DNA from: an uncultured Candidatus Saccharibacteria bacterium
Lineage (GTDB): Bacteria > Patescibacteriota > Saccharimonadia > Saccharimonadales > 2-12-FULL-41-12
Assembly: GCA_964521095.1 (NCBI GenBank)
Contig: CAZFPJ010000002.1
Location: forward strand, 85,108-149,107
Reading direction: 5' to 3'
Length of the DNA stretch: 64,000 nucleotides
The notes beneath the pieces were generated by a model, which was not told where the DNA came from, ran no database searches, and saw nothing but the letters and a program-made list of their open reading frames with translations. Position numbers and translations under genes: made by a program. Shown here piece after piece: positions 2,449-61,821 of this stretch; position 1 is the stretch's first letter; each line of letters opens with the position of its first letter.

Positions 2449-2874
2449 TTAGTTAAGGCCAAATGAGCCACTTGGGTCAGTCGGCTCGCCATCATTATCT
2501 GAGCCTATTAGGCCATCTATGTCGCTATTGTCCGCCATGCCGTCATCGCTAGTCGAGCTAGTCTCGGCTTGTACAGTAGACGCTGTATCTTCTGGCGCTA
2601 CTGAGGGACTTTCTGCTGTCTCGGTGCTTGTAGGCTCATTACTACTTTCGACCTCCGTGCTAACGGGCGCTTCTTGTGTTGTTGGTTCTGGTGCCCCTGT
2701 TTCGTCTACTTGTGCCAGAGTTTGCTGTTCAACAACTTCAACCTCAGCCATAGTGTCTGCCATCTGAATATTCTCGGCCATCGGTGTAGCTTGCACTTGA
2801 TCTGCCTGAGTGTAGTCGGCAGAGAAGTTATCGTTTGAGTTTTGTGTTTGTTGCGGAGTCGAGTTGTCGTCCAT
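2449..2874 (-). CDS. hypothetical hyper-acidic protein (paralog B)
   Basis: 141-aa ORF in tandem with paralog A. A sigma70-like promoter and an AAAGGA ribosome-binding site lie upstream. The core at 2690-2830 is ~95% identical in DNA to 2248-2388. Confidence 0.6.
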   Translation of the reverse strand: MDDNSTPQQTQNSNDNFSADYTQADQVQATPMAENIQMADTMAEVEVVEQQTLAQVDETGAPEPTTQEAPVSTEVESSNEPTSTETAESPSVAPEDTASTVQAETSSTSDDGMADNSDIDGLIGSDNDGEPTDPSGSFGLN

Positions 2875-2973: not shown

Positions 2974-2994
2974 TGGTAGCGGGGGCAGGACTCG
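2974..2994 (-). repeat. 21-nt exact copy of the tRNA-Met 3' end (third copy)
   Basis: TGGTAGCGGGGGCAGGACTCG is identical to 3343-3363. In tRNA sense it is CGAGTCCTGCCCCCGCTACCA. Confidence 0.9.
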
Positions 2995-3161
2995 GTCACC
3001 TCCGGCGACCCCGTCGCAACATCTTTCAAAACAAGTTTTGAAGAGTTGACTCACTTGCGAACTGCCACCGGCAGTTCGCACCTCCGACCTTCTTAGCGTC
3101 GCAGGATGAATTAAACTCAGCACCAAGTAAAAGACCCCATCTTTCGATGAGGTCCGTTACT
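2995..3161 (-). mobile_element. candidate non-coding module, family 2, bounded by tRNA-Met 3'-end copies (miniature integrative element and/or structured RNA)
   Basis: Homologous to 56057-56215 next to tRNA-Arg. Shared hairpins: GCGAACTGCC/GGCAGTTCGC at 3057-3079, TTCAAAA-CAAG-TTTTGAA at 3025-3042, and GCGAC-CCC-GTCGC at 3005-3017. No credible ORF. Confidence 0.5.
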
Positions 3162-3179
3162 TGGTAGCGGGGGCAGGAC
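3162..3179 (-). repeat. 18-nt exact copy of the tRNA-Met 3' end (second copy)
   Basis: TGGTAGCGGGGGCAGGAC is identical to 3343-3360. In tRNA sense it is followed by a hairpin plus T-run (3154->3129) homologous to the tRNA's own terminator. Confidence 0.9.
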
Positions 3180-3342
3180 AGCGGGCTTCGCCCTTTTTCG
3201 CTTGTTCGCCAGAAAAATACCTCGTGCTTTCCTGGCTTCTCTGCGCTACACCGAACCTGTGGTTCGCTTGCGCTCACGCATCAGGTTCTCGTTCTAGCTC
3301 CGACAAAGAAAAAAGACCCATCCAAAGATGAGTCATTTTTCT
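3180..3342 (-). mobile_element. candidate non-coding module, family 1 (includes the tRNA-Met terminator hairpin at 3309-3334)
   Basis: Roughly 65-70% identical by eye over ~110 nt to the module downstream of tRNA-Lys(UUU), 31670-31797. Shared blocks: CGAGAACC, GGTTCGG, GCAGAGAA, GAAAGCAC, GGTATTTT. A 9-bp stem (3228-3236 / 3208-3216) covaries with its counterpart. Confidence 0.5.
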
Positions 3343-3417
3343 TGGTAGCGGGGGCAGGACTCGAACCTGCGACCTTGTGGTTATGAGCCACACGAGCTGC
3401 CGCTGCTCTACCCCGCA
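3343..3417 (-). tRNA. tRNA-Met (anticodon CAU), initiator-like
   Basis: 75-nt cloverleaf folded by hand: anticodon loop CTCATAA, T-arm GCAGG-TTCGAGT-CCTGC, encoded CCA. It has a 1:72 U-U mismatch and two G-C pairs next to the anticodon loop, resembling fMet tRNA. Confidence 0.85.
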
Positions 3418-6470: not shown

Positions 6471-9400
6471 CTAGAACCCAAACACTTTCTGGAGAGAGTT
6501 AAGGATGATTGTTAGCACACTGTCTGAAGCCCGCCCAATTATGGCAGATTGAGGTTCGCCCTGTCCGACATTGCCAGATTTATCTTTTGATAGTGGCTGA
6601 ATGCTGTAGACCCGTGATGTTGGCAGGTCGGAGACAATAACTATGTGTTCTGTGCCAAGGGCTACATCTTCGCTGGTTTTGTTGTTAAATACAGTTGTGT
6701 TAGATCCTTCGCCATAGGCTACTTGGCTAGAGGATGGTTCGTCGGTCTTCCAGGAGACTACTACTTGTCCACGAGCTTCTGCACCGGTGCCACGGATAGA
6801 TGTTTCGATTTGTACTTCACTAATTTTTGGTGGCCGGGTGTCGAGGGCCGTTTTGAATTGTTGGCGGTCTGATTCGGCTAGGTTGCCACTGCCATCACGA
6901 CTTTGGGCAATCAAGAAATATTCGCTATTATCTTCTAGGCCTCGCAAGATGAGTTTGTGATCGGTGGTTAGTTGAGAATCTTGAACATCGATACCAGCCT
7001 GGCCAACCTTGCCATAAGTTACCGTTGAAGTAGCAGGTACATTTGTAGTCCAGCTGACTTCTTGGGTGCTGGTTGGCTCTCCTGCTATTGGTTGGAATCG
7101 TAGGTCTAGTATCTTTGGTCGAGCAGGGGTGGTGAAGGAGGAAACACTGCCATCGTAAGAGTTGTCTTCTTTATCGTAGGCGACTAGTTTGTAGAAGTAT
7201 TTTGAGCCGTCCTCTAGGCCATCTATGCTAACTTCATAGGTTGACTCATAAGGCGAGGTGTTGATAGATTTTATGCCTCCAAAGCTTTCGCCTTTGCCGT
7301 ATAACACATCAATGCGACTAGCGTTTTTGCTGGTAAATCTAATAGAAGCATTTGCGAGCCCAACCTTTGAGGTGGTGATTTCTTTGAGCGATGGGGCAGG
7401 GGCAGTTTGGAAAGTAAATTCTTGGCTAGTACCTGTGTTGCCATCTTCGTCTGTCCACTTGGCAACATAGTAGTAGGTAGTGCCTGCGCTTAGGTTGTTT
7501 AGGTCTATTTGGTGCGAACTTACTTGGTCAGACGAGGCGATCTCTGAAGAACTATATTTTCCGCTGGCTGTCCCAATAGCTATCTTTGAGTCACTTGATC
7601 GGTCGGTACTCCAGCTGATGGTCGCTTTGCGGGTAGTTATGTTGGATACTTTTGGATCTGCAACCAGGGTTGCTGGAGAGGTGAATTTACCAGTTGGTAT
7701 CTGGTTGACTGTGGTGCTGTTAGACCCACAGTTGTTAGTGCTGTCACAAGCCGTTACTCGATAGTAGTATCTTTGCTGACTTAGGCCGGCGTCTATGTAG
7801 GTAGTGCTAGAGCTACTACCTACAAACGAGAAGCTGACATTGTTTGTAGAGCGGTATACCTTATAGCTAGATATGCCAGCACCGGTATAAGTTGGTGCAT
7901 CCCAAGTTAGAGCTAGGCGCCAGTTGTTGGTGGCCTTAATAGACACATCGACGATATCGGTATTTAGGGGTATACCTGGAGACGGAGTGTTGGCCGTAAA
8001 GTTGACGGACGAATAGCTACTGTAGTTGATGTTGTTGGACTCGTCTTTTGCAACAACATAGAGCGTATTAAGTCCAGGCTGGGTTGCATATGGCCCCGCC
8101 CCTAAACTAGTCGTGCCTCCGCTAGTAAAGGTACAGTTATTGGCGGACGGAAGGATGTTAACGGTGTAGCAATAGGTTATATTGTTGGCGTTACCAACAA
8201 AAGTAGCCGGCTGGTTCCAACTGAAAGAGAACGAGTTGGTGGTGTTAGTAGTTGGATTTGCTGTAACATTTTGCGGTTCGCTTGGGGCTCCAGAAGTATT
8301 GATTTTTATAGCTGCAGTTACATAAGAAGCCGTCACATTACCTGCTTGGTCCCATGTTCTGAAGTAGACGGTATTTACTCCCTCAGTCAGATTAGCGTGA
8401 TCCGGTGTCGTAATAGTTTGGTATGACCCGTCATTAGACAGCAGGTCATTCATGTCACCCGTACCGCTATGACTATCTCCGTACCAAACAGTGTTGCCGA
8501 TTTTATATTGGAGGCCGGCAAGCCCAGAGTTGGGGTCATCAGGTGCTCCACCGCCAGATGTTGGCCAAGTTAGCGTGACATCTTTGGTGTTAATAAACCC
8601 AGATGGCGCAGTAATGTAACTAGGGTTAGTTGGCGGGGTGTTGTCGAAGCGGAAGTGGAACTGAGTTGTGCCAGTAGTTACATTGCCAGCATTATCCATA
8701 GCTTTGATAGTGAGGTAATACGGTGAGTTGCCGGTTGCTAGAGCTGTTTGTATAGTGCCAGCAGTTGCTGTGTCTATGCTGTTAGTCTCTATTAGGAATT
8801 GACATCGTCCGCCATTATCGGCTGGACTGTTCCCCAGAATACCTTTTGTAGTAACCGGGTCGGCGGAGCCATCGGTTCCAAGGTAGAGGCAGTAGCCCTT
8901 TATGCCAGAGTCTGTATCGGTGCCTGCTGTCCAGGAGAAATATGGTGAGCTACCATTGGTCCAAGCATTTTGCGCCAAGCTAGAACCGCCAGACGCCTTG
9001 AGTGCTGTTATGTTGCTAGCGTTTGTGGCTGGCTCTACTAAATCAGAAGTTGAGGCTAGGGTTACGCTGTTTAGGGTTACGCGTTGGTCGCCATTGCTCT
9101 TTAATACAGCCTGCCACTTTATGCCACTAAGGGTGACAGGGAAGGTACTCATATTTGCGTCGGCTACCGATATGGGGTTGGCCTCGGTCGTGTTATTGGA
9201 ATCTGCCCAACTGCTACCATTCCAGAATTTCCAGGTGACCCCGTTATCGGCAGACAGTCGGTAAGTGATGTCGCCACCGTTAGCGGTTTCGTTGGCTGTA
9301 AGGTTATCCCAGTGCCAGACGCCGTTGATACGAACTGGGTTGTTGAGGGTTATGGTTTGGGCAGTTGTGCTGTATGGCTTGCTGTTGAAGCTCGGCCTTG

Positions 9401-12400
9401 CGATGTCACTAATCCGTACCTCGTCTAACTGCCCCTGGAAATATCCGCGTGATTTTCCTTGTTCTCGTCCACCCCAGCTAGCACCGACAAACATGTCTCG
9501 TGAGCTGTCTGGTATAGTTAAAGATTTAGCTTGCGACCCAACTTCGTTGCCATCGATGTACAGTTTCATAGTTGAGCCATTGTAGGTGGCTGCTACATGG
9601 TGCCAGCTAGTGTCAAAACTAGAGGTAGAGGACTGCACGAATCCATTGTCGCCCCAAGACCAGATAGAGTTATCTTCTGAGTTGCCACTAAGCCCGGTAC
9701 CGGCGTATAGTTTGCCTTTATAAGGACTCATTGACCTAACGGCTTCGACATTGCCATCCCAACCGTTATTCATGCTGTCACCACCAATTTGTGTCCAGGT
9801 GGAGCCATCAAACTGCCAAAGCTCTCCATCGCCAGCCGTTGTCCCTAGTCCGGCGTATAGTTTGCCATTGTATACAGCGAGCGAGTGGATATACTCGTAG
9901 GTGCCTGCACCCCAACTATTGTTAACCGATCCTGTACCGCCCCCAATTAGTTCCCAGCTAGAGCCGTCATAAGTCCATATTTCGGCATCCCCTGTACTGT
10001 CGCCAAGTCCTACTGCTAGTTTGTCACCAAAGTTAGTCATAGATCGTACGGTTTCATAGCTTGTATTCCAGCTAGAGCTAACTCCATCGCCACCAACTTT
10101 ATTCCAGGCACTTCCATTCCACCGCCAGACTTCGGCTTCTGTGGCCGAAGTGCCGATGCCGGCATAAAGCTCGCCATTATAAATACCTAGCGACGAAACC
10201 ATCTCGAAGTTGGCTGCCCAGCCATTATTTATGTTGTCACCGCCAATTTTATCCCACTGACTGCCGTCCCAAACCCATACTTCGGCGTCATTGGCCGAAG
10301 TGCCGATGCCGGCATATAATTTACCAGCATAAGACGCCATAGAGTAGACTCCTTCATAGTTGGCTGCCCAGCCATCGTTCATGCTGTCACCACCAATTTG
10401 CGTCCAGGTACTGCCATCCCACTTCCATACTTCGGCGTCATTGGCCGAAATTCCTAGCCCAACATACAGCTCGCCCCCTAGGCTAGCCATAGAGGTTACG
10501 GCTTCGTAAGAAAAAGCCCCCCAGCTATTGTTGACTCCTTGTCCGCCTATCATTTCCCAGTTGCTACCGTTGAATCGCCATACCAGGGCATTGCCTGCCG
10601 TAGCATAGCCGGATCCCGCATATAAATAATCTCCGACCCATTGCATGACCTCTACGCTTTGGAGATTGTAATATCCCCAACTTTTATTTATCCCATTACC
10701 ACCTATCTGTGTCCAGGCGGAGCCATTCCATGTCCACATTCGTCCAGTGCCAGCAGAGTCATAAGTTCCTGCATATACCGTGGAGCCACTACTACTTAAT
10801 GTAAATATTGCATCGCCTTCTGCTGTGTTCCAGCTAGAGTTCGCTCCATCACCTCCAACTTTATGCCAGATACTACCGTCCCATCGCCAGACCTCACCAT
10901 CCCCATCGCTACTGCCGAGACCTACAAATATATCTGTTCCATTGCTGGTGATGGAACTGACATACTCGTAGGTTGTGTTGGCCCAGCTAGAGTTAAGCGT
11001 ATCACCACCAATTTGTGTCCAGGTGGGCGAGCCACCATTGCAACCCGAACAGCGATATACATCGCCATCGCCGGCGCTGTCACCAGTACCTGCATATATA
11101 TAAGTGCCGTCATAGAACAGGCTTCGAACCATTTCGTAGTTAGCAGAAAAACCACTGCCGTTATCGGCAACCTTTGTCCACTGAGTGCCGTTCCATCGCC
11201 AGACCTCGGCTTCGTTAGCGGTAACCCCCAAGCCAACATATAGATTAGTGCCATCATTGGTCATAGAGTAGGCATATTCGTAGTTTGTTCCCCATCCAAG
11301 ATTAATGCTGTCACCACCAATTTTGCTCCAGCTGGAGCCATCCCATTTCCACACCTCGGCGTCGTTAGCACTTGCTCCTAGTCCGGCGTATAGATTTCCC
11401 CCAAAATAATCTAGCGAGTAGACACCCTCGTGTGTGCCAATACCCCAACTCCCTGGCGTATTGGCGTCACCACCAATTTTGCTCCAGCTACTACCATTCC
11501 ATCGCCAGACCTCTGCATCTCCGGCACCAGTACCGAGCCCCACAAAAACATTTGTGCCATCAGTTGCCATGCTTAACACATATTCATGTTCGCCAGACCA
11601 GCTAGAATTTACGCCGTCGCCCCCAATTTTACTCCAGGTGGAGCCACTATATTTGTATACTTCCGCATCTTTTGTGGCTACGCCGGTTCCAGCGTATACA
11701 TCACTACCGACCGTCACAGATGAGGATACGGCGTTTTTGCCATTTAAGCCCCAGCTACCGTTAACATCGTCGCCAGCGGATTTAGTCCAGCCGGTAGCTG
11801 AATTATTGGCAAGCTCGTAAGTTAGCTTGCCTGTTTCATTGTCAAAATACATCTGGTAGTCGCCTTTATCTACTATTGCCTGGCGTTGTTCGTGCGAGCC
11901 AGCTGAGAAGTTGGAGCTAAATTTAGTCCAACCTTCAATTGTATTGTTTTGCGAAAGTGAAAGAGAGGGCGAATCGGGCACAGATATCTTTGAGGTAGTG
12001 CCATTTAGGCCTAGAGCATTATTTAAGTTACCTGTTTGCCAACTCTCGTCTTTAACCGTTCCATCATTGTTGTTGGTGGAGCTGTCATGAACAGTAGTTC
12101 CGCTCGATTCATCTAGGTGAAAGAGGGCTTTGGTGTTAGCATCGTCAGAATAGTTCTGGGCCTTCATGCGCACGCTGTTACCACTGATCTCTAAGCCATC
12201 ATCTAGGCTATATTGGCTAGGGGTAGAAAAGTCCCAGTTGTCAAAAAGGTCAGATGCAGCCAAGACTCTAGATAGAGAGGCAAATAACATTGATCCGATG
12301 ACAATCATGTATACGCCAAATACTGCATAATGCACTCGCTTGTGTTTGTCCCACTCGTGCCAGGTTTTGTATTTAGAGTATTTATTGGACAAATGCAGAT

Positions 12401-12608
12401 GTGGTTTGTGGGCCAAGTAGTGATGCCAGTATTTGTACCATCGCTTAAGCATTATAGAGGTCCTACGCAAGGAGTAACGAGAAATTTTACTACCGTATAT
12501 CGTTACCCAAACGGTAAATTGAATAGCCAAACGAATAAATATCGCAGAATATTTTAGCAATAATCCCCACGATTTTTGAGCTACTAGTAAAAATTTTTGT
12601 CTCGACAT
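6471..12608 (-). CDS. giant membrane-anchored surface protein (LamG/ConA-like domain with nested beta-propeller repeats, then FN3/Ig-like domains)
   Basis: 2045-aa ORF. It has a basic W/H/K/Y-rich N-tail and a TM segment at about aa 93-117. LamG_3-like sequence is split into aa ~160-270 and ~1000-1072. About 14 repeats of ~50 aa follow the pattern AEVWxWxGSxWxxIGGDxxNxxW. The C-terminal half contains multiple FN3-like modules. The true start may be an internal Met (aa 53). Confidence 0.85.
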   Translation of the reverse strand: MSRQKFLLVAQKSWGLLLKYSAIFIRLAIQFTVWVTIYGSKISRYSLRRTSIMLKRWYKYWHHYLAHKPHLHLSNKYSKYKTWHEWDKHKRVHYAVFGVYMIVIGSMLFASLSRVLAASDLFDNWDFSTPSQYSLDDGLEISGNSVRMKAQNYSDDANTKALFHLDESSGTTVHDSSTNNNDGTVKDESWQTGNLNNALGLNGTTSKISVPDSPSLSLSQNNTIEGWTKFSSNFSAGSHEQRQAIVDKGDYQMYFDNETGKLTYELANNSATGWTKSAGDDVNGSWGLNGKNAVSSSVTVGSDVYAGTGVATKDAEVYKYSGSTWSKIGGDGVNSSWSGEHEYVLSMATDGTNVFVGLGTGAGDAEVWRWNGSSWSKIGGDANTPGSWGIGTHEGVYSLDYFGGNLYAGLGASANDAEVWKWDGSSWSKIGGDSINLGWGTNYEYAYSMTNDGTNLYVGLGVTANEAEVWRWNGTQWTKVADNGSGFSANYEMVRSLFYDGTYIYAGTGDSAGDGDVYRCSGCNGGSPTWTQIGGDTLNSSWANTTYEYVSSITSNGTDIFVGLGSSDGDGEVWRWDGSIWHKVGGDGANSSWNTAEGDAIFTLSSSGSTVYAGTYDSAGTGRMWTWNGSAWTQIGGNGINKSWGYYNLQSVEVMQWVGDYLYAGSGYATAGNALVWRFNGSNWEMIGGQGVNNSWGAFSYEAVTSMASLGGELYVGLGISANDAEVWKWDGSTWTQIGGDSMNDGWAANYEGVYSMASYAGKLYAGIGTSANDAEVWVWDGSQWDKIGGDNINNGWAANFEMVSSLGIYNGELYAGIGTSATEAEVWRWNGSAWNKVGGDGVSSSWNTSYETVRSMTNFGDKLAVGLGDSTGDAEIWTYDGSSWELIGGGTGSVNNSWGAGTYEYIHSLAVYNGKLYAGLGTTAGDGELWQFDGSTWTQIGGDSMNNGWDGNVEAVRSMSPYKGKLYAGTGLSGNSEDNSIWSWGDNGFVQSSTSSFDTSWHHVAATYNGSTMKLYIDGNEVGSQAKSLTIPDSSRDMFVGASWGGREQGKSRGYFQGQLDEVRISDIARPSFNSKPYSTTAQTITLNNPVRINGVWHWDNLTANETANGGDITYRLSADNGVTWKFWNGSSWADSNNTTEANPISVADANMSTFPVTLSGIKWQAVLKSNGDQRVTLNSVTLASTSDLVEPATNASNITALKASGGSSLAQNAWTNGSSPYFSWTAGTDTDSGIKGYCLYLGTDGSADPVTTKGILGNSPADNGGRCQFLIETNSIDTATAGTIQTALATGNSPYYLTIKAMDNAGNVTTGTTQFHFRFDNTPPTNPSYITAPSGFINTKDVTLTWPTSGGGAPDDPNSGLAGLQYKIGNTVWYGDSHSGTGDMNDLLSNDGSYQTITTPDHANLTEGVNTVYFRTWDQAGNVTASYVTAAIKINTSGAPSEPQNVTANPTTNTTNSFSFSWNQPATFVGNANNITYCYTVNILPSANNCTFTSGGTTSLGAGPYATQPGLNTLYVVAKDESNNINYSSYSSVNFTANTPSPGIPLNTDIVDVSIKATNNWRLALTWDAPTYTGAGISSYKVYRSTNNVSFSFVGSSSSTTYIDAGLSQQRYYYRVTACDSTNNCGSNSTTVNQIPTGKFTSPATLVADPKVSNITTRKATISWSTDRSSDSKIAIGTASGKYSSSEIASSDQVSSHQIDLNNLSAGTTYYYVAKWTDEDGNTGTSQEFTFQTAPAPSLKEITTSKVGLANASIRFTSKNASRIDVLYGKGESFGGIKSINTSPYESTYEVSIDGLEDGSKYFYKLVAYDKEDNSYDGSVSSFTTPARPKILDLRFQPIAGEPTSTQEVSWTTNVPATSTVTYGKVGQAGIDVQDSQLTTDHKLILRGLEDNSEYFLIAQSRDGSGNLAESDRQQFKTALDTRPPKISEVQIETSIRGTGAEARGQVVVSWKTDEPSSSQVAYGEGSNTTVFNNKTSEDVALGTEHIVIVSDLPTSRVYSIQPLSKDKSGNVGQGEPQSAIIGRASDSVLTIILNSLQKVFGF
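9639..11795 (-). repeat. coding tandem repeats (~150-nt period, ~14 units) inside the giant gene
   Basis: Recurrent W-x-W-x-G-S-x-W..IGGD blades at aa 318, 368, 420, 470, 518, 574, 625, 677, 728, 778, 828, 878, 931 and 983. Some blades share DNA strings, e.g. GGCCGAAGTGCCGATGCCGGCATA at ~10143 and ~10293. Confidence 0.8.
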
Positions 12609-31430: not shown

Positions 31431-31458
31431 TTGACTTTTTGCCAAAAATGTCGATAAT
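31431..31458 (+). promoter_or_regulatory. candidate promoter for tRNA-Lys(UUU)
   Basis: TTGACT (31431-31436), 16-nt spacer, GATAAT (31453-31458), ~95 nt upstream of the tRNA. Confidence 0.4.
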
Positions 31459-31551: not shown

Positions 31552-31627
31552 GGGCCTGTAGCTCAGTTGGTAGAGCAGCGGCCTTTTAAGCCGCGTGTCC
31601 CGGGTTCGAGCCCCGGCGGGCCCTCCA
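31552..31627 (+). tRNA. tRNA-Lys (anticodon UUU)
   Basis: 76-nt cloverleaf: anticodon loop CTTTTAA, T-arm CCGGG-TTCGAGC-CCCGG, encoded CCA. Confidence 0.9.
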
Positions 31628-31629
31628 AT

Positions 31630-31797
31630 TTTAGTACCCCTCGCCCAAGAGGGGTTTTAAAATTGGAGAATTTATCCGAGAACCCGAGCCTGCGCTAGCA
31701 GGGGTTCGGCGTAGGCGAGCAGAGAAAAGAAAGCACCTTGGGTATTTTCTTTTCGAGTGAGCCGAAGGAGCGACCGAATGTAATGAGGGAAAGCGAT
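31630..31797 (+). mobile_element. candidate non-coding module, family 1 (includes terminator hairpin 31636-31658)
   Basis: Lies between two exact 20-nt copies of the tRNA-Lys 3' end. Homologous to 3180-3342. Contains a 9-bp stem GAAAAGAAA (31724-31732) / TTTCTTTTC (31746-31754) with loop GCACCTTGGGTAT. Confidence 0.5.
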
Positions 31798-31817
31798 GCC
31801 CCGGCGGGCCCTCCAAT
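31798..31817 (+). repeat. 20-nt exact copy of the tRNA-Lys(UUU) 3' end
   Basis: GCCCCGGCGGGCCCTCCAAT is identical to 31610-31629. Confidence 0.9.
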
Positions 31818-31822
31818 CTAAG

Positions 31823-31844
31823 AACCCACGATTGTGGGTTTTTT
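31823..31844 (+). terminator. intrinsic terminator after the repeat copy
   Basis: AACCCAC-GATT-GTGGGTT followed by TTTT. The outer bases CTCCAATC and GATTGGGAG can extend the stem. Confidence 0.65.
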
Positions 31845-31966
31845 GATTGGGAGATCTTGTAGAGATTCGAAGCTGGGACACGCAGTGTCTCGGGTGGAAT
31901 TGGATTATCTCAGTATCTCAACTCAGCCAATTCATAGACAAACCTAAGTTCTGATAAAATAGACAG

Positions 31967-56034: not shown

Positions 56035-56056
56035 TGGTACCCCGGGAGGGACTCGA
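56035..56056 (-). repeat. 22-nt exact copy of the tRNA-Arg(UCU) 3' end
   Basis: TGGTACCCCGGGAGGGACTCGA is identical to 56216-56237. Confidence 0.9.
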
Positions 56057-56215
56057 CCCACCTTCGGCAGGCCCGAAACTTCGCTATTGAAAACAAGTTT
56101 TCATCGGAAGATTTCCTTGCAAACTGCCACTGGCAGTTCTCACCCCGACTTTACGGTCGGAGGTTCATCTTGCAATCAATATAAATTTACTGGCCAAAAG
56201 GCCACAGAATTTACA
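56057..56215 (-). mobile_element. candidate non-coding module, family 2
   Basis: Homologous to 2995-3161. Shares AACTGCC-ACT-GGCAGTT (56122-56138), TGAAAA-CAAG-TTTTCA (56088-56103), and a hairpin TTCGG-CAGGC-CCGAA (56063-56077) at the position of GCGAC-CCC-GTCGC. Confidence 0.5.
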
Positions 56216-56436: not shown

Positions 56437-57957
56437 CTAGATATCGTGGATTATTTCTATCTTGGCGCCAAGCGAGTTAAAGCGATCGGCCAAGTCCTCG
56501 TAGCCACGGTTGATAGAATAGACATTACGAAGCATCGAAGTGCCTTTAGCAGAGAGCATGCCTATCAGTAGTAGGACTGCTGGCCGGAGGGCAGGGGGCG
56601 AAACTATATCGGCAACACTCCATTTTGTAGGGCCGTCTACATAGGCTCGGTGTGGGTCTGCCAGGGTTACACTAGCACCAAGTTTTCGTAACTCGGTGTA
56701 GTATATAGCTCGCTCTTCATAAGTCCAGTCGTGTATGAGCGTCCTGCCTTTGGCTGTAGCCGCAATCGGCACAAAGTAGGGTAGGTTGTCTATATTGAGG
56801 CCAGGGAAGGGGCGAGCATATATTTTCTCGTCCAGAGCCTTTAGTTTGCCATTGTGTTTGTGGATCGTTATGTCTACGAGATCGGTATAATTGTTATTTG
56901 CCTTGTACGGTTTGCTTGTGTCTATCTGAAGACCCATTTTCTCGAGCTTTAACAGTTCTAGTTCTAAAAATTCTATGGGAGCACGACTTATCTTGATGCT
57001 AGAGTTCGTCGCAACAGCTGCAGCTATAAAAGTCATCGACTCGATGGGGTCTTCGCTAGGATAGTAGGTAATATTTTTCTTGATGTTTTTTACACCCCTT
57101 ACTGTAAGTGTGCTTGTACCTATTCCGTCAATTTTTACCCCTAGTTTTCTTAAAAAATAACAAAGATCCTGCACCATGTAGTTGGCGCTTGCCATTTTTA
57201 TAGTAACTTCGTTGTCTTGTCGAGCGGCCGCCATTAGTATGTTTTCTGTTGTAGTATCTCCCGACTCATACAAAACCACATGTTTTGGTTGTTTTTGTTT
57301 AACAGTAACTTGGTAAAACCCGGTTTTTGCCACAATATCGACTCCAAATTCTTCCAGCGCAAACAAATGTGGTTGCACCGTTCGTTTGCCTAGTTTGCAG
57401 CCTCCTGCATACGGAATCTTAAATTCAGGGAATATGTGCATAAGAGGGCCAAGCATCATGATGACACTACGGGTTTTTCGGGCTGCCACTTTGTCCATTT
57501 TTGACAGATCCAGTTCTTCGGGTGGTTTGATCTCTAGGTCATTATTGGCCATCCATCGCACCTTCACCCCAATGCTAACGAGCACCTCGATTAGGCGGTT
57601 AACCTCTTCGATTCGAGGCATTTTTTTGAGGCGCGTAGTTCCTTTGTTGAGTAGCGCGGCAAAAAGCAAACAAACTGCGGCATTTTTGGAAACTTTGGTT
57701 TCTATAGTTCCAGATAGCTCATGTCCACCTTCTATCCGCAAGCTAACCGCGTCGCTACCGAGGCTAATTATCGGCTTATTGAGAGCATCACTTATGCGTC
57801 CTAAAGTTTCTAGGCTCAGATTTTGCCCACCTTTTTCGATGCGGTTGATAGCGCTTTGGCTGGTACCAATGCGTTTAGCAAGCTCCGCTTGGGTCAGCCC
57901 TCGTTCTTGCCTGATCTGATAAATTAGATTGCCGATCTTTTGGTTTGCTACATTCAT
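56437..57957 (-). CDS. murA: XRE-family HTH domain fused to UDP-N-acetylglucosamine 1-carboxyvinyltransferase (MurA)
   Basis: aa 1-65 carry an XRE HTH (RGLTQAELAKRIGTSQSAINRIEKG). The rest has the MurA/EPSP-synthase fold (GGHELSGTIETKVSKNAA..LLFAALL) and a catalytic-loop Cys (YAGGCKLGKRTV). Confidence 0.85.
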   Translation of the reverse strand: MNVANQKIGNLIYQIRQERGLTQAELAKRIGTSQSAINRIEKGGQNLSLETLGRISDALNKPIISLGSDAVSLRIEGGHELSGTIETKVSKNAAVCLLFAALLNKGTTRLKKMPRIEEVNRLIEVLVSIGVKVRWMANNDLEIKPPEELDLSKMDKVAARKTRSVIMMLGPLMHIFPEFKIPYAGGCKLGKRTVQPHLFALEEFGVDIVAKTGFYQVTVKQKQPKHVVLYESGDTTTENILMAAARQDNEVTIKMASANYMVQDLCYFLRKLGVKIDGIGTSTLTVRGVKNIKKNITYYPSEDPIESMTFIAAAVATNSSIKISRAPIEFLELELLKLEKMGLQIDTSKPYKANNNYTDLVDITIHKHNGKLKALDEKIYARPFPGLNIDNLPYFVPIAATAKGRTLIHDWTYEERAIYYTELRKLGASVTLADPHRAYVDGPTKWSVADIVSPPALRPAVLLLIGMLSAKGTSMLRNVYSINRGYEDLADRFNSLGAKIEIIHDI

Positions 57958-61348: not shown

Positions 61349-61425
61349 GCACCGGTAGCTCAGCGGATTAGAGCATCTGTCTTCGGAACAGAGGGTCGGG
61401 GGTTCGAATCCCTCCCGGTGTACCA
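61349..61425 (+). tRNA. tRNA-Arg (anticodon UCG)
   Basis: 77 nt: anticodon stem-loop TCTGT-CTTCGGA-ACAGA, encoded CCA. Confidence 0.85.
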
Positions 61426-61426
61426 T

Positions 61427-61503
61427 GGGCCAGTAGCTCAGCTGGTTAGAGCACCTGCCTCTTAAGCAGGGTGTCGAGGGTTCGAGTCCCTCCTGGCCCT
61501 CCA
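61427..61503 (+). tRNA. tRNA-Lys (anticodon CUU)
   Basis: 77 nt: anticodon stem-loop CCTGC-CTCTTAA-GCAGG, encoded CCA. It starts 1 nt after the end of tRNA-Arg. Confidence 0.9.
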
Positions 61504-61506
61504 AAA

Positions 61507-61671
61507 ATAGAACCGCCTTCCTGGCGGTTTTGTTTTTGGAACGCTTAAGGAAGAAAGCCAACTGCTTGGCTTTTGTGGGACTCGAACAGGCGGAGCGATG
61601 TCGAGCAATTCAGCGAGACCGCGAGCCGGGGTCGACAGCGAAAAGCAAAGCTTTTCGACTGGTGACTCGAA
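61507..61671 (+). mobile_element. candidate non-coding module (divergent; includes terminator 61511-61537)
   Basis: Lies between two exact 22-nt copies of the tRNA-Lys(CUU) 3' end. It contains an inverted copy of the T-loop region (GGGACTCGAAC, ~61578-61588) and the hairpin CGAAAAGC-AAA-GCTTTTCG. It shares the motif CAGnGAAAAGnAAAGC with family 1. Confidence 0.45.
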
Positions 61672-61693
61672 AGTCCCTCCTGGCCCTCCAAAA
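61672..61693 (+). repeat. 22-nt exact copy of the tRNA-Lys(CUU) 3' end
   Basis: AGTCCCTCCTGGCCCTCCAAAA is identical to 61485-61506. Confidence 0.9.
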
Positions 61694-61697
61694 TATG

Positions 61698-61724
61698 AAC
61701 TCCCCAAGAGGGAGTTTTTATTTT
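61698..61724 (+). terminator. intrinsic terminator after the repeat copy
   Basis: AACTCCC-CAAGA-GGGAGTT followed by TTTATTTT. An outer clamp pairs CTCCAAAATA with TATTTTGGAG. Confidence 0.65.
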
Positions 61725-61821
61725 GGAGCAGTGTGCTTTAGAACGCCCGACACGCCAAAAGGGCGTCGAGTCCCTCCCCTGATCGAATATGCCAGGATAG
61801 ACTCAAATCTAACTTGATATA

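Follow-up and report, generated by a model that had tools for sequence, protein, structure and literature searches.

We analysed a 64,000-nt stretch of DNA from an uncultured Candidatus Saccharibacteria bacterium (GenBank assembly GCA_964521095.1, contig CAZFPJ010000002.1, positions 85,108 to 149,107; hereafter the window), in which the last nucleotides of the transfer RNA (tRNA) gene tRNA-Lys(UUU) are repeated a short distance downstream. We suggest, with moderate confidence, that this 20-nt duplication is the sign of one member of a family of small units, protein-free and probably mobile, that are specialised on the tRNA genes of Saccharibacteria. The units are about 150-195 bp in length and encode no protein, and more than 50 copies were found to have the same architecture. 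Knowledge of mobile DNA in the tiny genomes of Saccharibacteria and other bacteria of the candidate phyla radiation is very limited.

There are exactly two occurrences of the 20-mer GCCCCGGCGGGCCCTCCAAT, at 31610-31629 and at 31798-31817 on the + strand, and the expected number of chance matches in the window is 0 even when 3 mismatches are permitted. The repeat reported by the first-pass annotation, which was made from the sequence alone, is thus exact and beyond chance. The proximal copy comprises tRNA positions 59-76 plus AT and belongs to an intact tRNA-Lys(UUU) gene with encoded CCA (31552-31627, +), which was identified by ARAGORN, by Rfam RF00005 (69.4 bits) and by its minimum free energy (MFE) cloverleaf. 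A promoter-like site, TTGACT-16-GATAAT (31431-31458, +; consensus scan), is the only such site 5' of the unit, and the motif is kept 5' of the tRNA in the related loci L002 and L107. The tRNA is followed by hairpin T1 (31623-31668, +; sequence and folds), which consists of an inner GC stem (ACCCCTC/GAGGGGT) and an outer A/T stem. The outer stem reaches (C72)U73-A76 of the tRNA, pairing with TTGGAG, and as annotated earlier CTCCAATTTT (31623-31632) is perfectly complementary to AAAATTGGAG (31659-31668) over 10 bp. Further downstream, an antisense/sense T-arm hairpin can be read from the sequence (31676-31708, +). Here GAACCC (31680-31685), antisense to the T stem and loop of the tRNA, pairs with GGGTTC (31702-31707) within the sense arm GGGGTTCG, and a small CCTGC/GCAGG hairpin lies between the two arms.

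The alignments place a B-type ("family-1") body at 31709-31797 (+), where it separates G57 from G59 in the T loop of a partial tRNA copy. The arms of its central hairpin are GAAAAGAAA (31724-31732) and TTTCTTTTC (31746-31754), which are flanked by the internal loop GAGCAGA/GAGTGA, and its nearest relative is the unit at 3162-3342 of the window (85% identity over 94 nt). The body is followed by the distal 20-nt copy (31798-31817, +; hereafter the block), an 18-nt identity plus AT, which is the 3' remainder of the partial tRNA copy. The annotation was right that the duplication brackets a discrete module of a repeat family, but the distal copy is not an isolated 20-mer. It forms the end of an incomplete tRNA copy (positions ~50-57 plus 59-76), the T loop of which is interrupted by the body, and an antisense T arm stands ahead of it. 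Hairpin T2 comes next (31811-31853, +; sequence and folds), with the stem ACCCAC/GTGGGT followed by T6 and an outer pairing of CTCCAATC with GATTGGGAG. The search for open reading frames (ORFs) in the 188-bp unit gave no credible ORF, and the consensus scan gave no promoter-like site inside it.

Each copy had been assigned its own terminator. A hairpin with a stable fold does follow both copies, but neither was called by the terminator consensus scan: T1 has a 7-bp GC-rich stem followed by UUUUAAAA, with a U tract of just 4 nt, and T2 has a 6-bp stem followed by U6. When the tRNA was folded together with its trailer, as the annotation had proposed, a normal cloverleaf was obtained, followed by a hairpin that pairs U73-A76 (z = -6.2). 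The earlier claim that the CCA end is clamped therefore stands as a predicted NCCA pairing, and the "clamp" is a folding prediction rather than a demonstrated function. In the predicted fold of the terminated transcript, the hairpin merely lengthens the acceptor helix by 4 bp.

A possible third fragment of the tRNA had also been noted, and the match is real, with GTGTCTCGGGT (31885-31895) equal to GTGTCCCGGGT of the tRNA at 10 of 11 positions. However, it is not a decayed 3'-end copy but the sense arm of a truncated and decayed A-type unit (31854-31925, +), which was recognised by alignment with the L107 and L032 units and is homologous to the unit located 3' of tRNA-Lys(UUU) in L107. The remnant contains a linker, an antisense arm ATTCGAAGCTGGGACACGC (31865-31883) that agrees with the reverse-complemented tRNA at 15 of 19 positions, the sense arm, and a degenerate first hairpin. 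The order at the locus is thus tRNA, B-type unit, older truncated A-type unit and ComEC promoter region. The identical duplicated structure is present in the independent Logan assembly of SRR14271335 (L001), possibly the very reads behind the window assembly, and it is therefore no artefact of one assembly. Together with the chance expectation given above, this ruled out chance or an assembly artefact as the origin of the 20-mer pair.

Homologues of ComEC assign the organism to the Saccharibacteria. To place the locus in its family, we used a comparison set of 80 related Saccharibacteria loci (designated by L numbers), anchored on a gene for a helix-turn-helix (HTH)-MurA fusion beside a tRNA cluster. 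A family-blind scan, in which each tRNA was tested for a downstream copy of its own last 16 nt, revealed an intact copy at 30 of the 273 tRNAs of these loci, mostly at a distance of 146-193 nt. Further units were found with a covariance model of the A-type body and a hidden Markov model (HMM) of the B-type body, which exposed many units whose 3' copies had decayed. In the final tally, 44 of 211 non-Gly tRNA sites were occupied, in 32 of 72 loci and at 8 tRNA species. One family spans the tRNAs for Lys, Arg (two isoacceptors), His, Pro and Met. Overall, a non-coding element sits in about one fifth of the tRNA sites sampled and in nearly half of the related genomes. In the window itself, the repeat search gave 5 units of 181-188 nt at 4 of 9 tRNA genes.

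The units share a common plan. After the CCA end of the intact tRNA comes a hairpin with a distal arm antisense to NCCA, and then a short linker. Next, the host tRNA is repeated in antisense (from about position 62 to position 44), and a small loop follows. A sense copy then runs from 44 to 53 in A-type or to 57 in B-type units and leads into a body of 85-110 nt, after which the tRNA resumes at 55/56 (A-type) or 59 (B-type and the third family, f3) and continues through CCA. A-type bodies are thus located between T54 and T55/C56, and B-type bodies between G57 and position 59. The hairpins can pair with the CCA end because the left part of the unit repeats the tRNA 3' end imperfectly and in inverted orientation. 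The unit always has an intact copy of this tRNA beside it, and in all copies examined it has the orientation of the tRNA. Blocks of 18-22 nt from the tRNA 3' end were found in 29 units; their lengths group around 18-19 nt in B-type and f3 units and around 21-22 nt in A-type units, and their start is always within the T loop. In addition, the internal T-arm pieces are closer to their own host tRNA than to others (Wilcoxon p = 4e-5 for the antisense and 6e-5 for the sense pieces). The bodies cluster in two superfamilies.

A rarer upstream form, present in L014, L011, L009 and L027, consists of tRNA positions 1-53, a body, positions 55-60, an antisense T arm and a promoter-like spacer, followed by the intact tRNA. 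Depending on the form, the element can thus leave behind a spare 3' part and a terminator, or a spare 5' part and a promoter-like sequence. Neither the units nor the bodies have terminal inverted repeats at their ends, and the inverted repeats that are present form internal hairpins. Likewise, the body junctions show no short target-site duplication of fixed length; the T loop is rebuilt, as in L037 (...GGGGT / body / TCGAATCC). All 18 strong matches of the A-type covariance model in 1.4 Mb have a T-loop context. A-type bodies are preceded by RGG(T) in 18 of 18 copies, where all sites are also tRNA-like, so that motif and homology are inseparable. The motif AGCATAAGC(AT) or its complement GCTTATGCT often occurs after the tRNA end or the last block (L045, L057, L032, L037, L067 and L024).

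The shared bodies bear directly on another account of such a locus, an ordinary tandem duplication of the tRNA followed by decay, in which the second 20-mer would be the best-kept piece of a pseudogene. The annotation had named residual similarity across the whole tRNA body as a sign of such decay, and this is seen in part: the similarity passes beyond the 20-mer into the sense arm, to positions ~44-57, and in the upstream form of L014, L011, L009 and L027 the whole 5' part of the tRNA stands ahead of the body. However, the same foreign bodies split the copies of 7 different tRNAs at an identical T-loop position, no second tRNA was detected at the locus by ARAGORN or Rfam at any threshold, and no partial tRNA copies lacking a body were found at about 240 other sites. 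Decay would also leave the antisense arm and the hairpin unexplained. The similarity beyond the 20-mer is part of a recurrent conserved architecture and not simple pseudogene decay; the duplication-and-decay account is largely refuted by the shared bodies, and we consider it extremely unlikely. We also set aside the idea that the body was a later insertion into pre-existing decoy tRNA fragments, as none of the approximately 240 sites holds a body-less decoy.

Comparison among units revealed conserved folds within the bodies. First, the A-type body contains three hairpins, of which the first and the third abut the two body ends. Among 10 A-type units, 96.9% of the cells in the alignment were paired, compared with 32-47% when the partners were slid; compensatory changes were observed in 17 of 32 pairs, and 0 of 500 shuffles were as good. 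Second, the B-type hairpin has an outer and an inner stem that both covary, together with a conserved internal loop (CGCGCA / GAGCA) and a YTTR loop, and its central hairpin (13 units) showed 83.9% pairing, compared with 27-42%, and compensatory changes in 10 of 11 pairs. Third, G.U pairs outnumber A.C pairs by 33 to 4 on the tRNA-sense strand of 18 A-type bodies, which indicates that the folded strand is tRNA-sense RNA or top-strand DNA. Finally, a CCA-pairing hairpin was found at 37 of 44 occupied sites, compared with 47 of 167 other sites (Fisher p = 2e-11), some of these hairpins being solitary with nothing unit-like behind them. We examined whether the hairpin is a lineage-wide style of terminator apart from the units and rejected this, as the HMM revealed decayed units at many of the "empty" hairpin sites. 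The hairpin appears to travel with the units, and parts appear to be shuffled among them.

Among the Rfam covariance models, only that of tRNA passes the threshold, and the sub-threshold matches are hairpin noise. A small ribozyme was considered, since a hammerhead-like CUGAUGAG...CGAAC can be seen by eye in some B-type loops, and was rejected: Rfam gives no match, the motif is missing from the tRNA-Lys(UUU) unit, and a C stands in place of the conserved A15.1. In L032, the tRNA 3' third, the hairpin and the antisense arm form an imperfect hairpin of about 105 nt (1830-1934), which draws sub-threshold plant microRNA-precursor models in Rfam.

These structures can also be read as serving the host, in which case the unit would be a structured RNA or a cis-regulatory device transcribed with the tRNA. 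Upon read-through of T1, the antisense arm and the hairpin would sequester the T arm and the CCA end of the tRNA, and the sense arm, body and block would complete a giant tRNA-like fold that senses or disposes of the read-through, or yields a tRNA-tailed small RNA. With no promoter-like site in the unit, such an RNA would be made only by read-through from the tRNA promoter. The covariation and the excess of G.U over A.C fit tRNA-sense RNA. Moreover, in the MFE fold of the 309-nt read-through (z = -5.7), the 5' acceptor strand has the distal block as its partner and the 5' strand of the T stem has the antisense arm, and in L037 the pairing between antisense and sense arms is kept via a compensatory 2-bp deletion and a G.U pair. 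However, the alternative read-through fold is a prediction from a single sequence, selection for structure is possible in a mobile element too, and 21 of 30 last copies have no following hairpin. The patchy distribution, with 44 of 211 sites occupied, different families at one and the same tRNA and many units decayed, is unlike an essential host function, and the nested insertion and the unit at a heterologous tRNA described below indicate mobility. We regard a host-serving device as unlikely, while granting it an appreciable minority chance.

The comparison of occupied with empty sites that the annotation had proposed was carried out at several tRNAs. The ComEC-linked tRNA-Lys(UUU) site is empty in L002 and L003, where an identical tRNA is followed by a plain terminator that lies 50 nt from ComEC, and it is also empty in L106. 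In L107, tRNA-Lys(UUU) is followed by the hairpin, a truncated and decayed A-type unit and two extra genes. Across genomes, tRNA-Lys(CUU) carries A, f3, f4 or B units or nothing, with 6 empty sites. For the upstream form, a single block of about 190 nt ahead of tRNA-Lys distinguishes L014 from L016, which share about 90% identity in this region. The block contains tRNA positions 1-53, which match the real gene exactly, followed by an A-type body, the short sequences GAGTCC and TTGG, an antisense T arm and a spacer of 20 nt, and TTGG, antisense arm and spacer together form the promoter-like TTGGTC-N17-TACAAT.

Two cases point to movement. In L056, a unit with a sense arm, block and hairpin of the tRNA-Arg(UCU) type, as in L062, is located behind tRNA-Arg(UCG), and these two tRNAs have just GGGTACCA in common at their ends. 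Since the unit keeps the parts of the other tRNA, the block is carried along by the unit instead of being copied from the target. This ruled out the possibility that the block is a target-site duplication made at each insertion, the foreign block, arm and hairpin having all been kept. In L027, an A-type body is nested in the third hairpin of another at GGGT^CG, where the T-loop site reads GGGT^TCG. In addition, the arrays are polar, with the unit beside the tRNA intact and the outer units decayed. Genes adjoin some units: a NADAR-domain gene lies between tRNA-Lys and the unit in L026 (1935-2441, -), and L059 (2984-4295) and L107 (593-1458) have two genes each beside the unit without a Pfam match. 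The L059 genes are missing from the 92%-identical relative L057.

The fate of the block in L056 also bears on a retro-type origin, in which a reverse transcriptase would copy or prime on the tRNA 3' end and stop in the T loop, with integration via target-primed synthesis at a T-loop nick. The block lengths of 18-19 and 21-22 nt with starts always in the T loop would suit such an origin, and the 18-nt block (59-76) is as long as a retroviral primer-binding site. Transcription only together with the tRNA and the RNA polarity of the folded strand would suit it as well. On the contrary, the L056 unit retained the block of its old host, the upstream form with its promoter-like spacer and tRNA 5' part is hard to obtain via tRNA-primed cDNA, and no reverse transcriptase was found in the window. 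We consider a retro-type element very unlikely.

Based on these observations, a mobile unit could be pictured to work as follows. Integration would take place via the tRNA-identical segment beside the body, by Campbell-type or site-specific recombination, and the intermediate may be a small circle, possibly single-stranded. The crossover could lie anywhere in the tRNA-identical segment; for L056, it would lie in the last 8 nt. Each insertion would yield a working tRNA with its own terminator (or promoter) and a displaced partial copy, which at the locus under study would be the second 20-mer. Newcomers would enter beside the tRNA, and older units would be pushed outward and decay, which would account for the truncated A-type remnant at 31854-31925. 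A recombinase or transposase would act in trans, with the body hairpins on the tRNA-sense strand as the structure that it most likely recognises.

Several observations weigh against this mobile-unit interpretation. First, no integrase, transposase or reverse transcriptase was found among the 28 window ORFs scanned or the cargo genes adjacent to units, and no autonomous relative of the units was found. A double-stranded circle of 185 bp would be very small for known tyrosine recombinases, and the model offers no explanation for the origin of the antisense and sense T-arm pieces. Second, near-identical copies at different sites of one genome were not seen, and recent transposition is therefore not demonstrated. 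The three A-type units of L037 are about 65-82% alike (by eye; 82% is one pair measured), and the L032 and L037 bodies are 90-95% identical with different host arms, a pattern that could result from gene conversion or transformation rather than transposition. Third, L013 and L032 share a near-identical hairpin with flanks that cannot be aligned and bodies of different families, which indicates a shuffling of parts that the simple model does not predict, and L056 carries an extra GGGGTACCA that is unaccounted for. Fourth, the covariance model and the HMM took in a few flanking T-arm bases, which gives a slight bias to tRNA contexts. Finally, the tRNA-Lys(UUU) unit itself is a divergent and weak B-type member (nhmmer E = 0.31), and its fold taken alone is no better than shuffles (z = -0.7). 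As single-sequence folding of this unit gives no signal, the case for structure rests on the comparative evidence.

Beyond the window, no larger or integrase-bearing island flanked by tRNA 3' repeats was found within 12 kb of the 273 tRNAs, and blastn against phage and plasmid records gave no similarity. The units were also considered as an attP of a phage or plasmid, and this was rejected, as the motif scans of viral contigs returned chance matches in coding DNA of unrelated phages. A metagenome scan with a pattern specific to the B subfamily of the tRNA-Lys(UUU) unit returned 7 chance matches, all in genes. A TnpB-type guide RNA, composed of a scaffold and a 3' guide corresponding to the block, was set aside because the adjacent intact tRNA would be a permanent self-target.

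These searches bear on the possibility that the units are scars of larger integrative elements, such as prophages or islands with tyrosine integrases, of which attL and attR with their arms remain and the interior has been deleted. Direct repeats of the last 17-24 nt of a tRNA gene, together with an intact tRNA, are the hallmark of insertion by P4-type and related integrases. The small gene cargos beside units (NADAR in L026, two genes each in L059 and L107) would also speak for it. However, random deletions would not produce a length as tight as 146-193 nt and one architecture in over 50 copies, and the units contain covarying hairpins. Moreover, neither the 12 kb around each of the 273 tRNAs nor the phage and plasmid records yielded a candidate parent, the viral contig matches being due to chance. 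We judge that scars of this kind are improbable.

The integrase-less derivatives of tRNA-targeting elements are known as cis-mobilizable elements, CIMEs (ICEberg 2.0, PMC6323972; review PMC5704250). The units resemble tRNA-targeting integrative elements and CIMEs in that an intact tRNA is followed by an element and a direct repeat of the last 18-22 nt. They also resemble them in that the displaced gene part is supplied, in tandem accretion and in presence or absence among related genomes, with a crossover possibly at the T loop or the 3' end. On the other hand, the units are about 150-195 bp and gene-free, and no cognate integrase element was found at the 273 tRNA sites. Their interior consists of covarying hairpins instead of protein-binding arms, and they have an antisense T arm, a split partial tRNA copy and a 5'-replacing mirror form with a promoter-like spacer. 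One body family is moreover located at many different tRNAs. In islands with dusA-specific integrases, the 5' end of the target gene is restored, and these islands are kilobase-sized and integrase-encoding (PMC4482086). The upstream form (L014, L011, L009 and L027) similarly supplies a new 5' part with a promoter-like sequence, but its insert is about 190 nt and non-coding.

The bodies share features with non-autonomous, palindrome-associated derivatives of IS200/IS605 and with repetitive extragenic palindromes and their associated transposases (REP/RAYT): they are short and non-coding, without terminal inverted repeats or target-site duplication at the body ends. As in IS200/IS605 derivatives, there are subterminal hairpins at both body ends and a one-strand structure with G.T pairs, and insertion may take place directly 3' of a short motif (GGGT^ in A-type units, the nested copy included), although each of these sites is tRNA-like too. 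In contrast, no Y1 (HUH) transposase or TnpB was found in the 64-kb window, the target is an essential RNA gene, the left and right hairpins of the unit are dissimilar, and the units always bring along three further parts that are not known from that family: a terminator, a spare part of the tRNA and an inverted copy of the T arm. In short, the body layout resembles IS200/IS605-type non-autonomous elements, and the outer repeat resembles integrase att sites. Miniature inverted-repeat transposable elements (MITEs) are likewise small and non-coding, with many diverged copies at which assemblies break; unlike MITEs, the units lack terminal inverted repeats and a fixed short target duplication, are strictly associated with the tRNA T loop and, in the copies examined, always have the orientation of the tRNA. 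Some 3' external transcribed spacers of tRNAs function as small RNAs, one example being the 3'ETS of leuZ in E. coli. Like the units, these spacers are structured, co-transcribed RNA segments in a tRNA trailer, but only the units are repeated, duplicate the 3' end of the tRNA and sit in a tRNA-like T loop.

Our literature search found no description of such elements, and neither there nor in Rfam, the phage and plasmid collections or the viral contigs was there a precedent for a protein-free unit of about 185 nt that combines covarying hairpins and a fixed position in the T loop with an inverted T-arm copy and a spare part of the tRNA on either side. We tentatively raise the possibility, which we rate clearly below even, that the units represent a new class of protein-free tRNA-gene parasite, consisting of a folded DNA or RNA body of about 90 nt and a repair kit, with a structured single-stranded intermediate. 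The repair kit would comprise the tRNA 3' end with a terminator, or the 5' part with a promoter, plus the inverted T-arm copy. Since the spare tRNA part is carried along, the essential gene would survive each insertion, and movement would depend on an unfamiliar enzyme or on a host enzyme that recognises the T-arm structure. An essential gene would thus be targeted at a fixed T-loop position by an insertion made harmless through the spare part that it carries. If such an enzyme is found, it would be a T-loop-specific recombinase or transposase and possibly a tool; Saccharibacteria have become genetically tractable only recently, through natural transformation. The covarying hairpins represent two structured families that are lacking in Rfam and are ready for modelling. 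For annotation, partial tRNA copies and hairpins beside tRNAs in these genomes are best read as parts of units.

ComEC-bearing short-read contigs often begin inside or just past the tRNA-Lys/unit region (L001, L004-L008 and L106; window 31552-31966). This suggests that the units break short-read Saccharibacteria assemblies at tRNA loci, which would explain the assembly breaks seen there. Tandem arrays are also present elsewhere, with two A-type units after tRNA-His in L037 (13500-13800, -) and two B-type units after tRNA-Arg(UCG) in L049 (2087-2500).

The remaining units of the window are located at three other tRNA genes. The B-type unit that is the closest relative of the tRNA-Lys(UUU) unit (3162-3342, -) adjoins tRNA-Met (3343-3417), and is followed in tandem by an A-type unit (2974-3161, -; covariance model R1, 110 bits at 2988-3085) and a third hairpin (2934-2973). 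An A-type unit with a 22-nt block and without a hairpin after the block is located at tRNA-Arg(UCU) (56035-56215, -; R1, 100 bits at 56049-56147). The f3 unit at tRNA-Lys(CUU) (61504-61690, +) is 87% identical to the L011 unit. According to the sequence and the family plan, it is followed by a second hairpin and a body-less remnant of an older unit, GAACGCCCGACACGCC-AAAA-GGGCGTCGAGTCCCTCC (61691-61780, +). A single base separates tRNA-Arg(UCG) from this tRNA-Lys(CUU) (61349-61503). No unit was found directly 3' of tRNA-Gly(UCC), about 20 nt before tRNA-Arg(UCU), in the window and all related loci inspected, this tRNA being tallied together with the Arg(UCU) units that follow; this suggests that a cluster tolerates units only behind its last tRNA.

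Other features of the window were noted in passing. Just 3' of the tRNA-Met array, a 146-nt segment is present at 2247-2392 and 2690-2835 (-) with 91% identity. The two copies lie in small acidic ORFs next to each other and suggest that a gene was duplicated locally and recently. A 2045-aa ORF (6471-12608, -) is built of diverged repeats, whose periods are about 150 and 306 nt (families D1-D3, D5 and D9), and probably encodes a large surface protein in which the repeats are beta-propeller-like or of a similar kind. Finally, the gene used as an anchor for the comparison set (56437-57957, -) encodes MurA, of the EPSP-synthase fold, fused to an N-terminal Cro/C1-type HTH domain, and this fusion is conserved in 80 Saccharibacteria genomes with 69-89% identity.

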